The translations under genes and the position numbers were made by a program. A stretch of DNA of 64,000 nt, taken from the sequence record PZ738962.1; one strand, written 5' to 3'. Numbering within the stretch: the first letter of the stretch is position 1; the number at the start of each line of letters is the position of its first letter. The DNA comes from a phage. The notes under the pieces were generated by a model. The model was given only the letters and a program-made list of their open reading frames with translations, was not told the DNA's origin and did no database searches. Shown here piece after piece: positions 32,735 through 47,818 of this stretch.

Positions 32735-33215
32735 TTGCTAAATCATTGCAATATTTTAGTGCCTTAGTTTGAAATTCTGCGCTGTTAAGTTCTTCATAAC
32801 GGTCATAATCACCGTTTAATGCTGCCTTTCTTGCTTCTTGCTCTATCTGCATGTCAGACATGATAATACAGCGATCCCGCGCTTTCATCTTCTCAAGTTG
32901 TATAGACTCTTCTTTCTGCTTGCGCAATTCTTCTTGACGCTTCTTTTCTTCTTGTGCTTTCTCTTCCCGCGCTTCTTTGATTGCATCCTTGAACATCTGC
33001 GTTTGTGGTGCTAAACCAACTTTAACGCGATCCACGTCTCGACGTTCCATTTTAGAAATAAAGCATGATTCGATCTGATCATCACTTGCATATGCTGCTT
33101 TACATTCACGAAGCAAGAAAACCGGATCTGATTTAGCATTCATCATAGCTTCCATGTTGGCACAACCAGTAAGCATGAATGCAGCCGCAAGACCAATCAG
33201 TTTAATCATTTTCAT
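32730..33215 (-). CDS. putative lipoprotein
   Basis: 161 aa; signal peptide with lipobox LTGC; charged K/E-rich segment; start overlaps stop of the upstream ART gene (ATGA). Confidence 0.5.
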   Translation of the reverse strand: MKMIKLIGLAAAFMLTGCANMEAMMNAKSDPVFLLRECKAAYASDDQIESCFISKMERRDVDRVKVGLAPQTQMFKDAIKEAREEKAQEEKKRQEELRKQKEESIQLEKMKARDRCIIMSDMQIEQEARKAALNGDYDRYEELNSAEFQTKALKYCNDLAK

Positions 33216-34036
33216 TTAGTCACCTCACCGAAAATTGTAAATTGTCTACGATTCTCATCGCCGAAAGATTCTACTACGTCGTTTACCTTGACGCAAGTCC
33301 CTCGCGGTAAAATTACTTCACATTCGCAAGGGTTCCATGCAATTGACCCAACAACAAAACCTTTATGATCTTTTACGTCAATTACCCATGATACATTACA
33401 AGAATGTTGCATCTTTCCGGTCATTGATTCATATCGATTCTCACAATAAAGGCTAGTGCTGTTTGATAGCCATCCTCCAAAGATGATCGGTGTCATGCTG
33501 GTAGATACAAAGTTTTTAAAGGTAAACTCCTTATCTTCAATGATACGCTCTATTGTCTGAATGTCAAGATGTTGACCTCGATAAAGAGTACCGTTTAACT
33601 TTTCGGTTTTATCCATGACACAATCCATCAAATCAACAATCTCTGATATCTCATCGGTCATGTCTTCTTCCCCTAAGAGAGCACCATTTACCCATTCGTA
33701 TTGTTCAGACACATAATCACAGATTGCATTATATTCTGCTGGGGTTATGTTGTTATGTTTGTAATGTTTGAATACATTATCTCCAAAGTCTTCGGAGTGT
33801 ACTTCATACATCACATTAATGATTTTCTTGACAAATCCATAATCTTGTGTCTCGCGCTCAAGGAAGCGGATAACCTTCACATAATCATCAAAGTTAATCT
33901 GATCGCTGATCATCTCAGTGATCATGTAACCATTAATCCCCTCAATGTCATATGTTTCGATGTAATTATCCATACGTTCCATCATTGATTCGCGTGATTC
34001 TTCTGAAAGACGAAAATCCTGTAATTTCTTGAACAT
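33212..34036 (-). CDS. Alt-like ADP-ribosyltransferase paralog
   Basis: 274 aa; TLYRGQ...FTFKNFVSTSMTPIIFGGW...CECEVILPRG parallels Alt ILYRGM...FYFKNYVSTSLAPNIFGGW...ECEILLPRG (R-S-ExE motifs). Confidence 0.6.
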   Translation of the reverse strand: MFKKLQDFRLSEESRESMMERMDNYIETYDIEGINGYMITEMISDQINFDDYVKVIRFLERETQDYGFVKKIINVMYEVHSEDFGDNVFKHYKHNNITPAEYNAICDYVSEQYEWVNGALLGEEDMTDEISEIVDLMDCVMDKTEKLNGTLYRGQHLDIQTIERIIEDKEFTFKNFVSTSMTPIIFGGWLSNSTSLYCENRYESMTGKMQHSCNVSWVIDVKDHKGFVVGSIAWNPCECEVILPRGTCVKVNDVVESFGDENRRQFTIFGEVTK

Positions 34037-34114: not shown

Positions 34115-36166
34115 TTACATTTTAAATTTATCTGGCATTGCGTCTACAGATACCAGATCAGCGATAAGCTGACGTAGAGTTGCCTTATCTGCTTTCTTAC
34201 GTTCGGTTTTAGCTTCGCTAATGAAGCTGGAGAAAGACAGGTCAGAAGCAGGTTTAATAACACCTTCACGGATGAATGCATCACCGTCCGCGATCATCTC
34301 GCCAGATTCTTGTAATGCTGCCAGTTCATTTTTGTTCATAATATGTGCCTCAATGTAATAAGTTTCTTGTGAATCCGTCGATGCCGTAGCACGAGTTACC
34401 GTATCAAAGGATAACACAACACCGCGAGGAAGTAAAATCTCGCATTCTTTGTAAGCAAATGCTTTGTTACCTACTGGCAATACAGGGATGTTTTCCGCGC
34501 CAGCAATGGAGAAAGCAACATTAGCGCCACCTTCACCGCGAGAGCCAGCCATAGAATCAACACCAGCAACGGCACTAGCCACGTTTGCATTCCAGCCGCC
34601 AAAAATGTTAGGTGCAAGGGAAGTGCTCACATAGTTTTTAAAGTAAAACGCTTTTTGCTTACGTGCAGTTTCCCACATTTGCGACCGGAAGTCCATACCA
34701 CGATACAGAATAGTACCCGGATCAAGTTTAACGCCATAGTTGGAGAAGGCATTATCCAGTGCATCGCACATCTTGACCAATTCTTCTGGATCTGCGATGC
34801 CTTCAAACTCTTCCAGCTTACGGTCGGTTAGGAAGTTGTTCATATTGATGTATGCTGCATCGGCATATTCGCTCAACACAAAACCTTCCGCGCCTGGCAG
34901 ATCAAGATCAATATCTGCCATCATTTCACCCATGTTGCTAGCAATTGCTTCAAACATACCGGACGCAACATTACGTAGGGCATCGGTTTTAATCTGGGTG
35001 ATATGACTACGCAGCATTTCAGCTTTTACATCTGCTGGCATAGACTGGTCTACTCGATCCATTGCCAGGACGGTGATCTTGTTTTCGAATACTTCCTCGC
35101 TCATGATTTCTTTTAAGCGTTTGACCGAGGCTGCGATAACTTCCGCAGACAATGGATCATATTGATCCTGAACTTTTACCAGTTCGCTTACTGCGTATTT
35201 TGCATCGGCTTCGCTTTCAAAAATAGTACGCATGAAACCATAGCGAGTGATAATATCACTTGTCCAGTCATTCAGAGAACGAGCGGTTGAACGTTCTAAG
35301 GCTTGACGGTCAATCAGAGTATTAAACTGTTTCTTAGGTTCTGCTTCGGTGATATCTTCTTCCGGTTTAAGATTAATTTTTTCTGGATGATTCACATAGT
35401 CGCTGTTATAGGTCGCTTGAGTTTTCAGCATTTCTTCTTTAGTCAAACGAGATTTAGCCGCTACGCGTTGTTCTGCTTCCGCGTTTCGTTCTTCTTCTGA
35501 CACAAGACTAGCCGCATATGCCTCATCTTTAGTCAGAGATTCACCAGTAGCCTTAGATACCCAGCGATCACCTAAATCACTTTCTACTTTAGTGAACAAG
35601 GATTCATCAAGTTTAATCCCTTTAATCTTATCAATCGCCATCCCGCGACGCTTGACAACAACTAAAGCGATCTTTTTGCTGGTCATTACTTCCTGCTGGA
35701 ATACTTCAAACTTCGGTGTACGACGCACCAAACGCTCTATAACGCGCTTAACCAGTTCGGTCTTACCTTTCATGCGGGATACGTTAAAACGGAACATAAC
35801 AGCGTCTAATTGCGCTTTACGGGCTGTTTCCATAACCACATCAAAAGCACTTGACATAACTGCAATCGGGTTATCGCCTAGACCATTTTTAAGCTGTACA
35901 ATACGACCGCTTTTGTTCATTTCGCACAGTACAACATGTGCGGTCTTGTCACCCATACGAATGATTTTAGGTGTTTTGTTGGTGAAGTTACAAAGACGGA
36001 CAATCACATCTTTATCGCGTGTCTGTACTGCAAAAAGTTGTTTAGGATTCTGCTTAGGCTTTAAGCACTGTATCGGAGCAATACTGCCAAAGTTTTCTTC
36101 CTCTTCCGTCAACAGCCATTTCTCGAAAGATTCAATCATTAGATCGTCGATTTCTAAGTTAAACAT
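34115..36166 (-). CDS. alt: Alt ADP-ribosyltransferase (injected internal head protein)
   Basis: 683 aa (T4 Alt about 682); C-terminal ART motifs YRG / STS / ECEILLPRG; position after gene 54. Confidence 0.8.
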   Translation of the reverse strand: MFNLEIDDLMIESFEKWLLTEEEENFGSIAPIQCLKPKQNPKQLFAVQTRDKDVIVRLCNFTNKTPKIIRMGDKTAHVVLCEMNKSGRIVQLKNGLGDNPIAVMSSAFDVVMETARKAQLDAVMFRFNVSRMKGKTELVKRVIERLVRRTPKFEVFQQEVMTSKKIALVVVKRRGMAIDKIKGIKLDESLFTKVESDLGDRWVSKATGESLTKDEAYAASLVSEEERNAEAEQRVAAKSRLTKEEMLKTQATYNSDYVNHPEKINLKPEEDITEAEPKKQFNTLIDRQALERSTARSLNDWTSDIITRYGFMRTIFESEADAKYAVSELVKVQDQYDPLSAEVIAASVKRLKEIMSEEVFENKITVLAMDRVDQSMPADVKAEMLRSHITQIKTDALRNVASGMFEAIASNMGEMMADIDLDLPGAEGFVLSEYADAAYINMNNFLTDRKLEEFEGIADPEELVKMCDALDNAFSNYGVKLDPGTILYRGMDFRSQMWETARKQKAFYFKNYVSTSLAPNIFGGWNANVASAVAGVDSMAGSRGEGGANVAFSIAGAENIPVLPVGNKAFAYKECEILLPRGVVLSFDTVTRATASTDSQETYYIEAHIMNKNELAALQESGEMIADGDAFIREGVIKPASDLSFSSFISEAKTERKKADKATLRQLIADLVSVDAMPDKFKM

Positions 36167-43972: not shown

Positions 43973-44449
43973 TTATTTTTCTTGATGCTCGCGATCGTAC
44001 TTTTCGAAATAAAATTCTACTGGCTGGTCGTGGATTGACAGCAAGCCAAAGCGTTTAGCCGCTCGCAATCCCATATTGCGCTGAATGTACTTCTGGAAGT
44101 TCTCGCGTATACACTTACGCCAGTATTCTAAGCCCATACAGCTTTTATAAAGATTGCATTGCACACACGCCGGATTCATGTTATCAAGTATATCATGCTC
44201 CGGTTTATGCATTCCTACAACCTTATATTTCCATGATCCATCATCATTACGGGCAATTCGTCCATTTTCATCATAGACTACCTTTGAGCGTCGCAATACT
44301 GGTTTGATGTGGTCCGCGTGCCAGCGATCCCCTAGTTCCTCGCCACAATAGGCACAACGTCCACCATATTTCATTTTCAGGATCTGGCGTTGCTCTTTCT
44401 TTGACAATTTTTTAGGTTTAGGGGCTTTCGCCCCTTCATTATCACACAT
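43973..44449 (-). CDS. HNH homing endonuclease (Mob-like), free-standing upstream of ligase
   Basis: 158 aa; CAYCG...HADHIKP...N...CVQCN (HNH with zinc-binding Cys pairs); stop overlaps ligase start region. Confidence 0.65.
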   Translation of the reverse strand: MCDNEGAKAPKPKKLSKKEQRQILKMKYGGRCAYCGEELGDRWHADHIKPVLRRSKVVYDENGRIARNDDGSWKYKVVGMHKPEHDILDNMNPACVQCNLYKSCMGLEYWRKCIRENFQKYIQRNMGLRAAKRFGLLSIHDQPVEFYFEKYDREHQEK

Positions 44450-45938
44450 CGAATACCTCTTTTACTGTATTTGCAGTGGTCTTGTCGTAGCGAATACGTT
44501 TGATGATTGGGAGAAATAAAGAGAACTCCGGTTCATCTTCTTTACGTGATTTGCTGCGGATATACCCGTTGCATGTCATCTCAATGACTTTTCCAATCAG
44601 GTTATGACGGTCAGCCCATAACATTTCTCGGTCGAGTTCATTTCGACGATCGAACGGAATTACACGTTCGATACCATCATCACCTTTTTCGGTTGTAGTG
44701 TCGGTTAATCCCGATCCGGTGTTAGTCATCATTCGTCCGCACGCACTACGGACAGTAAAACCGCCTACCTTATTGGGGTCTTTACTATGCGGATATACAT
44801 CAACAATTTCCGCGTCGAAGTCAATCACTTCTTTAAATTTAACCTGATCTTTACTACGGCGATCTTCAAATACACCATGTAAATTTTTAAGGATAATACC
44901 TTCTAAGCCCATGTTGACATAACGATGATATACTTCGCGAGCTTCATCGATATTGTTAACTACAGTGTTTTCGATGATCTGAACACGAGGATCGTTAAGT
45001 TCTTCAACAATCTGTTTTAGTTCTTCGAATCGATCTTTATATTGCTTCGTTGCTTTCTCGTTTCCGTAATACACATCACGGTCGATAACATCCCAGACAG
45101 TGTAAACAATACATTGGGCTTCTTCTTTTGGAATAGTTCCTTTAAGTGATTTGTTGAGGATACCATTTCCGGTCTGACGATCTGCAACAACGGATTCTTT
45201 CACTGCTTCCGCTACTGGCGTTAATGGCATTTCCTCTTCTTCAAATATCCATGACAGAGTACCATCATAAACGCTTTCAACGAAGTTCTGCGCTGGTGTT
45301 TGAGAAAGGGTAGGCATATATACCAATTCGCCATCTAGAACAATTCCACGGCCTCGTAGACGCTCTAAAACCGCAAACAAATCATCAAGCCCTTGATAGG
45401 TATTACCTGAGCGGGTATAGATTGCTAATGTTTCCCCGTCAATATCAGCCATACCACGAGCGCCATCGCTTTTAAGTTGTGCATACGCCGGATACTTGAT
45501 ATTAGCAATCGTCTTATCAGAACATGACGATGCAAGGTGGCACGGTTGCTGGGGGATCAGTTTCTTCCATACCTTGTTTGCAGTGGTAGCGGAACAGCCG
45601 CATTCCAGATCACGATTCAGGACCATCATTGCAACTTTAGCATCATCCTCTGACAAGCAAGTCAGAGTATCGGTAACTAGTTGTAATGCTGCATTACCAG
45701 TTACTTGACGCGTGGCAAGTTTATTTTTAAAGACCTGTAATGCACCGGATAAAGACAATACAGACGAATAGCGAGACGGTTTATCGTATTTCTTTACGCC
45801 AAACGTAACCTGTTTGCAATATGCCAGATAAAAGCATTCTTTCAGCGTTTCATTGCTTGCTGATTCTTTCAGAATCTTTTCTTTCAGCGATGTTTTGTCT
45901 GTTGCTGCAAGCTGATTAATGATATTAAGAATTGACAT
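44442..45938 (-). CDS. 30: ATP-dependent DNA ligase gp30
   Basis: ORF-track start is GTG; ATG 45938 with GAGGTG Shine-Dalgarno; adenylation motif AQLKSDGAR (KxDG); collinear with recalled T4 ligase. Confidence 0.9.
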   Translation of the reverse strand: MSILNIINQLAATDKTSLKEKILKESASNETLKECFYLAYCKQVTFGVKKYDKPSRYSSVLSLSGALQVFKNKLATRQVTGNAALQLVTDTLTCLSEDDAKVAMMVLNRDLECGCSATTANKVWKKLIPQQPCHLASSCSDKTIANIKYPAYAQLKSDGARGMADIDGETLAIYTRSGNTYQGLDDLFAVLERLRGRGIVLDGELVYMPTLSQTPAQNFVESVYDGTLSWIFEEEEMPLTPVAEAVKESVVADRQTGNGILNKSLKGTIPKEEAQCIVYTVWDVIDRDVYYGNEKATKQYKDRFEELKQIVEELNDPRVQIIENTVVNNIDEAREVYHRYVNMGLEGIILKNLHGVFEDRRSKDQVKFKEVIDFDAEIVDVYPHSKDPNKVGGFTVRSACGRMMTNTGSGLTDTTTEKGDDGIERVIPFDRRNELDREMLWADRHNLIGKVIEMTCNGYIRSKSRKEDEPEFSLFLPIIKRIRYDKTTANTVKEVFDV

Positions 45939-46404
45939 TTTCACCTCGTTTTGTTAAACGTTCACGAATATCATTGAGGATACTACAAAATTCCGATTCA
46001 GTCAATATAGTCTTTAACGGATCAGTTCCACCTATACTATGACGTAATTTCTTATTTCCGGTAGCGAGTAATGCTTTACAAAATTCTGGGTTATTCCGTG
46101 CCATCGTAACAAATGCCAGATGTACCAGTCTGTAATAATGCTCACTCATTCGATGAATCGGGCGACCCTGAAAATATAACATGTGATTCTCAATCTTTTC
46201 AGTTCTTCCGGTTCTTTTTGCTTTGCCACCGTGCATCAAAAAGATTTCTCTTTGTCTCTGAGGGTTCTTAAATCTTAGCCCCTGTAAAAATCCTTCTGTG
46301 CTGTTAATATCGCAGCCAAATAAACGGAATGGTCTTTTATTGAAATTACTCAATTCACCCGATGGATAGGGTCCACCCGCATAGATATCAATTTCAGAAG
46401 TCAT
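45925..46404 (-). CDS. NADAR (YbiA-like) domain protein
   Basis: 159 aa; YAGGPYPSGELSNF...STEGFLQGLRF...EFCKALLATGNKKL parallels E. coli YbiA FYS..FSNFA...TSEHYFQAQKF...ELRALLLATAP (recalled). Confidence 0.55.
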   Translation of the reverse strand: MTSEIDIYAGGPYPSGELSNFNKRPFRLFGCDINSTEGFLQGLRFKNPQRQREIFLMHGGKAKRTGRTEKIENHMLYFQGRPIHRMSEHYYRLVHLAFVTMARNNPEFCKALLATGNKKLRHSIGGTDPLKTILTESEFCSILNDIRERLTKRGENVNS

Positions 46405-46558
46405 TGAAACTAATCTCGCTAATCAGAGAGAACGGATCATAATCGTCATTAGGAATATCGATAGTAATCGAATGAGGATTTACCCATACACCAAACTGGT
46501 CTTCTTCGGTGAATACTTCGGTATGGATTTCGTGGATGTTTACATTCATAGTTTTCAT
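46394..46558 (-). CDS. hypothetical small protein
   Basis: ORF-track start is TTG; ATG at 46558 with AAGGA. Confidence 0.3.
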   Translation of the reverse strand: MKTMNVNIHEIHTEVFTEEDQFGVWVNPHSITIDIPNDDYDPFSLISEISFNDF

Positions 46559-46599
46559 AATAAATTCCTTAATAATCAATAACTTACAAAATCATATAG

Positions 46600-46628
46600 C
46601 CAAAATATAGGCGGGATTATTTCCCGCC
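46600..46628 (-). terminator. hairpin ggcggga-ttattt-tcccgcc downstream of gene 31 (minus strand)
   Basis: read directly. Confidence 0.45.
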
Positions 46629-46639
46629 GTTTAAAATCA

Positions 46640-46963
46640 TTAACCGTAAACTACCACAATATTCTGTTTGTGCGTTACAGTCCATTTCAGGTCGATCTCT
46701 TCTTCCTTCTTAACGCCGTTAATAACGTCTGGATGAGGAACTTTATTCATCTTGCCATGTGGCAGTAGAACAGTTTTACCCAGCAATTCTTTATCTACCG
46801 TCTCGCCAATATCAATAATCTTACCTACCAGCGGAATCTCGCCCATAGTGCGCTTTTGCTCAATAATGATCCCCATAGAGCTTTTTACTTCTGTCCCTGC
46901 GCTTTCTGCTTTAGCTTCAATGATCACATAGTCACCAAGCGCTTTAGGAGTTTTAACGGTCAT
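46640..46963 (-). CDS. 31: GroES-like co-chaperonin gp31
   Basis: 107 aa; GroES-like beta-rich sequence with mobile-loop-like Gly-rich segment; position after ligase. Confidence 0.7.
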   Translation of the reverse strand: MTVKTPKALGDYVIIEAKAESAGTEVKSSMGIIIEQKRTMGEIPLVGKIIDIGETVDKELLGKTVLLPHGKMNKVPHPDVINGVKKEEEIDLKWTVTHKQNIVVVYG

Positions 46964-47004: not shown

Positions 47005-47319
47005 TTATTTATAAATTTCGACGATCTGCGCTGGAGTCAGCCCGTCTACATTAATCAGACTATCAAGCCCAAAACTACGGAAACCTTCAACTGCAATTTC
47101 ATATACTGGCAAAGATGTTTCTGATTCTTTACGCGGTTTTTCAACATTCGGAACTAACCACTTTTCGTATGTTTCAAACGGCATCAGTGCCGGATCTCGC
47201 GTGGCGATCATCTCACGGACAGTACCATCTTTCTTAGTAAACTGAAAAGAGTGAGTACCGACCGAAAACATTTTCTTTAGTGCTTCACGAAGTGCGATAT
47301 TATCAACTTGTTCAGTCAT
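47005..47319 (-). CDS. hypothetical protein
   Basis: ORF-track start is TTG; ATG at 47319. Confidence 0.4.
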   Translation of the reverse strand: MTEQVDNIALREALKKMFSVGTHSFQFTKKDGTVREMIATRDPALMPFETYEKWLVPNVEKPRKESETSLPVYEIAVEGFRSFGLDSLINVDGLTPAQIVEIYK

Positions 47320-47818
47320 TATCAATACCCTTCAAATCAGTCAATAATGCTTTTGGAATACGCGTGATTGTAATATCTGCATTATTCAGAATATCAGCCC
47401 AATCACGCCCACCATTTCGATCATATGTGTCGCAATAGTATAGATGTTTAATACCACTGTTTGCAATTGCTTTAGCGCAATCTGGACACGGTGAAGCAGT
47501 ACACCACATACTAGCGCCTTCAATCGATACACCGCTACGGGCAGCAAACAAAATAGCATTTAATTCAGCATGAATCTCGTTTTTCTGTGACCATGCACTA
47601 TGCTCTGGTCGTTTTTCTGGGATCATTTTGCCGTCATCATCCAGCCAACCGTTTTTATGTGCATGACAGCTACAATTTACTTGCCCTGCTGGAGTTCCGT
47701 TAAATCCAGTAGAAATGATTCGCCCGTCTTTTTCGATCAGTGCGCCTACCTTCCACGAAACGCATTTAGAGTTCTTTGCGATTAGATAGGCGATCTGCAT
47801 GTAAGTTTGTGACAACAT
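47312..47818 (-). CDS. cd: dCMP deaminase
   Basis: 168 aa; zinc-binding HAE (EIHAELNA) and PCxxC (SPCPDCAKAI) motifs. Confidence 0.8.
   Translation of the reverse strand: MLSQTYMQIAYLIAKNSKCVSWKVGALIEKDGRIISTGFNGTPAGQVNCSCHAHKNGWLDDDGKMIPEKRPEHSAWSQKNEIHAELNAILFAARSGVSIEGASMWCTASPCPDCAKAIANSGIKHLYYCDTYDRNGGRDWADILNNADITITRIPKALLTDLKGIDND

Follow-up and report, generated by a model that had tools for sequence, protein, structure and literature searches.

Between the DNA ligase gene and gene 31 of the phage record PZ738962.1, of which a stretch of 64,000 nucleotides (the window) was analysed, lies a short open reading frame (ORF) on the minus strand (45925..46404); the questions are which family its product belongs to and what that product does for the phage. 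NADARs remove ADP-ribose from guanine by hydrolysis, and in the DarTG1 system the antitoxin DarG1 is such an enzyme (Schuller et al., 2023; PMC11543638). Moreover, the resistance of T-even phages to DarTG1 has been mapped to gene 30.3, which was renamed adfN for anti-DarT factor NADAR (Johannesman et al., Nat Commun 2025; PMC11825919). Based on the comparisons described here, the ORF is the Krischvirus (RB49-type) orthologue of T4 30.3/adfN and encodes a protein of minimal NADAR fold, probably an ADP-ribosylglycohydrolase that would act as an orphan, DarG1-like anti-DarTG1 enzyme.

Gene 30.3 and its surroundings

The ORF corresponds to gene 30.3 and runs from an ATG start through 159 codons to a TAA stop. 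At its 3' end it shares 14 to 20 nt with the beginning of the DNA ligase gene (44442..45938 or 44442..45944), depending on the ligase start chosen, and its own start is overlapped by 11 nt by the 3' end of a small upstream ORF of 54-61 aa (ORF215c; 46394..46558 or 46394..46579). The GroES-like gene 31 (46640..46963) lies on the upstream side. As in T4, 30.3 is encoded on the early-gene strand and lies within the interval from gene 31 to the ligase gene. In T4, however, about eight small genes (30.4-30.9 and rIII) separate 30.3 from 31, and 30.1 and 30.2 stand between 30.3 and gene 30, while in the window 30.3 abuts the ligase gene and a single small, unrelated ORF lies upstream. The ORF overlapping the 30.3 start (46394..46558) was also considered as a conserved partner that might be the missing T-even cofactor. 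It was rejected, as it resembles neither T4 30.4 nor the genes found upstream of 30.3 in six other Straboviridae.

The 30.3 ORF is a real gene under strong purifying selection. A gap-free, full-length match is present in all 60 of 60 Krischvirus records, and the 1.6 kb around 30.3 is 98-99% identical in about 60 Krischvirus genomes (RB49, JSE, Phi1, W115 and others), with RB49 gp30.3 being 100% identical to the window protein. When eight Krischvirus genomes of 95-99% nucleotide identity are compared, each pair differs by at most 24 synonymous and at most 5 non-synonymous changes, giving dN/dS values of 0.00-0.11. A search of 1.84 billion representative proteins returned 973 relatives at E <= 1e-3 (432 at E <= 1e-10). 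By tblastn the gene was found in 1,510 phage records, and almost all of the sampled rows were Straboviridae that infect enterobacteria, Acinetobacter, Aeromonas and Vibrio. Krischvirus records label the ORF 'gp30.3 conserved hypothetical protein' or 'hypothetical protein', the 'hypothetical' labels being those of the records examined and of sampled rows of the 1,510-record match list.

A scan for promoters and terminators around 30.3 found no excess over shuffled sequence (14 versus 12.3 and 3 versus 3.0, respectively), and because this is the level of shuffled sequence no claim is made on the transcription unit of 30.3. A G+C-rich hairpin (46610..46628, minus strand; GGCGGGA-aataa-TCCCGCC) followed by a T-run separates the stop of gene 31 from the small ORF that precedes 30.3. 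It is terminator-like and resembles the stem of the 'PeSL' elements of RB49 and phi1, and it is not followed by a good sigma-70 promoter. Two further neighbours can be annotated. Directly downstream of the ligase gene, with its start overlapping the ligase stop, is an HNH endonuclease gene of 158 aa (43973..44449, minus strand; PF01844, E = 5e-6; phrog_2118, E = 7e-55), which is the same as RB49 ORF212c and whose product may act as a homing endonuclease of the free-standing type. Gp31.1 (47005..47325, minus strand) has a match to the WYL_2 Sm-like SH3 beta-barrel domain (PF10902, E = 1.8e-10), while in RB49 it carries no annotation beyond conserved hypothetical protein.

Family, fold and conserved residues

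Judged by profile matches and predicted fold, the protein is a member of the phage (gp30.3) clade of the NADAR superfamily. It matches Pfam PF08010 (Phage_30_3) with 132.5 bits against a gathering cutoff of 36, covering positions 2-138 of the 138 in the profile, and phrog_652 with E = 2.5e-45. T4 gp30.3, which also belongs to PF08010, is 38% identical across the entire length (E = 2e-30) in an alignment that reaches the last T4 residue; the two proteins have 159 and 152 aa, and both are NADAR folds of the core-only type. The generic Pfam NADAR profile, PF08719, stays below its gathering score (15.5 bits versus 35.1; E = 0.021). This shortfall is compatible with the NADAR assignment because Pfam has a separate model for the phage clade and because a profile-profile match recovers the homology to YbiA. 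While plain BLASTP finds E. coli YbiA only marginally (23% identity over 107 residues, E = 0.006), a profile of 13 family sequences aligns with it over 125 columns, including the core motifs, with an hhalign probability of 90.7% and E = 1.3e-6. The NCBIfam model 'NADAR family anti-phage protein' is far below threshold (13.8 bits against a 240-bit cutoff), NCBIfam gave no other match, and PADLOC gave none.

The AlphaFold2 model, built from the 13-sequence family alignment, is a confident one, with a mean pLDDT of 93.7 and a pTM of 0.88, and NADAR structures were the sole matches when it was used in a fold search. The model reproduces the fold of YbiA, an alpha+beta arrangement in which a core helical bundle is flanked by two small beta-sheets. 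Against the DarG1 structure 8bat (G. lovleyi), 137 residues of the model align to the 219-residue chain at 11% sequence identity. Searching the PDB by sequence with the family profile returned YbiA alone, weakly (E = 0.041). With the single protein as query, the same search returned designed repeat proteins and 7vhv (E = 3.8e-4), a D-alanyl carrier protein ligase; these hits were judged spurious, being unsupported by the fold search or the family profile. The sequence-only reading had already called a NADAR or YbiA-like domain from a by-eye alignment to the YbiA core motifs. The call is borne out by the strong PF08010 match, the fold search and the profile-profile match, the last of which aligns the same motifs. 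That reading had also named a NADAR profile match as its check; taken literally, the generic PF08719 score is a refutation, while PF08010, the correct profile, gives the match. Within the window the domain occurs once, as a six-frame profile search found no second NADAR copy and T4 gp30.3 as query gave no other match.

PF08010 members also occur outside phages, some of them in larger proteins. Several metagenomic members carry an N-terminal region of about 300-320 aa that is multi-pass membrane-like and has no Pfam domain; P0024 and P0039 have it in common, and P0100 has only part of it. P0058 carries a fused metallophosphoesterase domain, P0061 has fused BspA-type leucine-rich repeats, and P0069 and P0117 have tandem NADAR domains with a second copy that lacks the catalytic Glu.

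In NADARs a Glu contacts the distal ribose and a Lys the phosphates of ADP-ribose (PMC11543638; for the Glu also PMC11825919). Glu37 of the window protein (codon GAA, 46294..46296, minus strand), in the motif S-T-E-G-F-L-Q, is equivalent to E36 of T4 AdfN, E43 of PnNADAR and E88 of the E. coli C7 NADAR, and 162 of 168 family domains have Glu at this column. Seven residues further on, the position of the phosphate-binding Lys (K43 in T4, K50 in PnNADAR, K95 in the C7 NADAR) is taken by Arg44 (codon AGA, 46273..46275, minus strand). In the last beta-strand, YbiA has a Glu at the key position, DarG1 an Asp and the phage NADARs a His (PMC11543638; the clade definition also PMC11125620). His122 (codon CAT, 46039..46041, minus strand), which T4 gp30.3 shares, is this marker of the phage NADAR clade. 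It is invariant in both family alignments, is found in 161 of the 168 domains and stands opposite the Glu of the YbiA motif 'LVEHT' in the profile-profile alignment. The C-terminal alpha-helix (residues 136-157 by the secondary structure of the AlphaFold model; 45934..45999, minus strand), with the conserved motif 'TILTExEF', is complete, as it is in T4, while the frameshifted RB69 allele, which is less active, has lost the corresponding helix (PMC11257639, PMC11825919). Overall, homology, fold and synteny are established for the window protein, as are strong purifying selection and the retention of the key residues, with Arg in place of Lys.

Compared with other NADARs, the protein differs from DarG1 (the BC4488-type, including G. 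lovleyi 8BAT and the E. coli C7 NADAR) in being an orphan. DarT1 is not encoded next to it; its neighbours are ORF215c and the DNA ligase gene, and the nearest ADP-ribosyltransferase genes are of the Alt type (PF03496), 9.8 kb away. DarG1 has a catalytic Asp where the window protein has His122, and it possesses an N-terminal extension, forming an electropositive DNA channel, that a core-only protein of 159 aa does not have. E. coli YbiA (2B3W) has a catalytic Glu in the last strand instead of His122, is encoded on the chromosome next to dinG and has a described role as an N-glycosidase of riboflavin intermediates. AdfN-Bas32 and AdfN-Bas60 from T5-like and Vequintavirinae phages are likewise phage-borne orphan NADARs, and they counter DarTG1. 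They were acquired independently, however, belong to other NADAR clades and work without phage infection, which T4 AdfN does not (PMC11825919).

Probable role against DarTG1 and the alternatives

The function of the T4 orthologue has been addressed directly. Purified T4 gp30.3 hydrolyses guanosine-ADPr but not thymidine-ADPr (Toxins 2024, PMC11125620), and the T4 NADAR leaves cytidine-ADPr in place (PMC12945103). The T4 protein has 152 aa in RefSeq (NC_000866; 2498..2956 in the T4 stretch), while the methods of PMC11125620 describe a construct of 'residues 1-208'. That gene 30.3 confers resistance to DarTG1 has been demonstrated for T4 and T2 (PMC11825919, PMC11257639, HIDEN-SEQ preprint). T4 becomes sensitive to DarTG1 when adfN is deleted, and RB69 is rescued when the gene is expressed in trans; T4 AdfN removes ADP-ribose from DNA and does not bind DarT1 (PMC11825919). 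It is weakened alike by E36A, by K43A and by an RB69-type C-terminal truncation, and it is fully effective only in T-even infection, possibly through another T-even factor (PMC11825919). In addition, transposon sequencing independently found T4 30.3 to be conditionally essential only on DarTG1 hosts, with no fitness effect otherwise (HIDEN-SEQ preprint, 2025).

By analogy with this orthologue, the window protein most likely has the same enzymatic activity and the same anti-DarTG1 role. In an infected DarTG1 cell, the DarT1 toxin would ADP-ribosylate guanine N2 in the phage DNA and block replication. Gp30.3 would then bind the ADP-ribose, Glu37 and His122 surrounding the distal ribose and Arg44 contacting the diphosphate, and hydrolyse the N-glycosidic bond, so that unmodified guanine is restored and replication proceeds. 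An early-expressed gp30.3 would in effect be a phage-carried orphan antitoxin of the DarG1 type. The sequence-only reading had proposed that the protein counters a DarT-type defence by reversing guanine ADP-ribosylation in DNA, and for T4 gp30.3/AdfN this has been demonstrated experimentally (PMC11825919, PMC11125620, HIDEN-SEQ preprint), which suggests the same for the window protein. As to the target, the proposal applies to DarT1, which modifies guanine, and not to DarT2, which modifies thymine. Points against an AdfN role are the Arg in place of the phosphate-binding Lys, the sub-threshold score with the generic NADAR profile and the T-even dependence of T4 AdfN. A literature search on Krischvirus and DarTG found nothing, and RB49 is absent from the AdfN paper.

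The host phage differs from T4 in its DNA, in which cytosine is unmodified; the cytosine of RB49 DNA is likewise ordinary (PMC4041780). The 2024 preprint of the AdfN paper claimed that T4 AdfN prefers hydroxymethylated DNA and that the E36A and K43A variants are inactive (PMC11257639). In the published version, T4-GT7, which lacks any DNA modification, still depends on AdfN, and E36A and K43A partly rescue (PMC11825919). A conflict between the unmodified cytosine of RB49 and an AdfN role was considered and dismissed on the strength of the T4-GT7 result.

Several other roles can be weighed against that of an AdfN-type enzyme. One is that the substrate consists of soluble ADP-ribose derivatives or N-ribosyl metabolites, such as immune signals, by-products of RNA repair or intermediates of the riboflavin pathway, rather than DNA adducts. 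The annotation of YbiA as an N-glycosidase on riboflavin intermediates and the location of 30.3 near the RNA-repair genes pseT and rnlA would fit this proposal. It is older than the direct experiments, however, in which T4 gp30.3 is active on G-ADPr in DNA in vitro and the genetic phenotype is specific to DarTG1, and the window protein has His where YbiA has Glu, so that a soluble substrate is very unlikely. Still less probable is the second proposal of the sequence-only reading, by which gp30.3 reverses or tunes ADP-ribosylation by the phage's own transferases. The remark on transferases some 10 kb away is accurate. The alt gene (34115..36166, minus strand; 683 aa; PF03496, E = 2e-9) and an adjacent short Alt-like gene (33212..34036, minus strand; 274 aa), which matches PF03496 better than alt does (E = 4e-16), lie 9.8-13 kb from 30.3, on the same strand and in the same early-gene block. 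The targets of Alt-type enzymes are arginine residues of proteins. By contrast, the NADAR activities reported are on guanine and, in some clades, on cytosine bases (PMC11125620, PMC11543638, PMC12945103), and no published report was found of NADAR activity on ADP-ribose attached to protein. Early expression of T4-like NADARs together with ADP-ribosyltransferases has been noted (Iyer et al.), but about twenty genes stand between 30.3 and alt, which argues against operon-level linkage, and T4 30.3 has no effect on fitness in the absence of DarTG1 (HIDEN-SEQ preprint). Beyond this loose linkage the tuning proposal found no support. That gp30.3 is a decaying or non-functional remnant is hardly credible, even though the RB69 copy is frameshifted and weak and the window protein lacks the canonical Lys, as the gene is intact at full length throughout the 60 Krischvirus genomes, its dN/dS is low, and the C-terminal helix and every other key residue are in place.

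A further alternative retains the fold and chemistry and places the difference in the target. According to it, the proteins with Arg at this position in Krischvirus, Lazarusvirus and some metagenomic members would act on another DarT1 allele, on a YarT- or pierisin/ScARP-like toxin or on ADP-ribosylated RNA, and not on E. coli C7 DarT1. The change from Lys to Arg is fixed and under purifying selection, and in the E. coli C7 DarG1-NADAR an engineered K95R uncouples the two activities, with hydrolysis in vitro kept and rescue from DarT1 toxicity lost (PMC11543638). NADAR clades also differ in specificity in vivo though activity in vitro is common, and all of them remove G-ADPr from RNA as well (PMC11125620, PMC12945103). 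On the other hand, both Arg and Lys are basic and able to bind phosphate. The occurrence of Arg in scattered members whose other catalytic residues are intact suggests a near-neutral substitution, and the partial rescue by T4 K43A (PMC11825919) implies that the position is not decisive in the phage clade. Overall, a shifted target appears unlikely.

Arg44 and the annotation of gp30.3

For an AdfN-type enzyme, the Arg at position 44 is the one departure from the T4 protein among the key residues. Lys is found at this column in 151 of the 168 family domains and Arg in 11; a basic residue, though not Lys, is kept here. T4, Dhakavirus C6, Vibrio QD01, Proteus PM2, Klebsiella KP15 and Aeromonas phage 31 have Lys. 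Arg44 is invariant in the eight Krischvirus genomes sampled. The same residue is present in Acinetobacter phage KARL-1 (Lazarusvirus) and is found again in several divergent metagenomic members, in which Glu37 and His122 are retained. Because T4 K43A still partly rescues and the Arg form is kept by selection, we read Arg44 as a tolerated, possibly specificity-tuning variant and not as a loss of function. It seems rather doubtful that the Arg44 lineage (Krischvirus, Lazarusvirus and the scattered metagenomic members) is a functionally distinct AdfN subtype, in which ADP-ribose binding would be retuned for other DarT1 alleles or guanine-ADP-ribosylating toxins, or which would act autonomously, without the further T-even factor on which T4 AdfN apparently depends. 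If it were, this subtype would be a way into the host-phage specificity of AdfN, which is as yet unexplained.

In conclusion, the idea of a NADAR at this locus that would counter DarT is correct, but it has already been published for the T4 orthologue and the gp30.3 family. Phage NADARs matter in that they undo the ADP-ribosylation of DNA by the DarTG1 defence, and no new kind of system is described here. The practical value lies in annotation, in that the label 'hypothetical protein' can be replaced by putative AdfN / NADAR-family DNA ADP-ribosylglycohydrolase. The natural Arg in the Krischvirus and Lazarusvirus copies is the sole point found that goes beyond published accounts, and it is a small one. 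Nevertheless, a natural Arg at the position where an engineered change from Lys to Arg impaired DarG1 in vivo is a cheap natural experiment on NADAR specificity.
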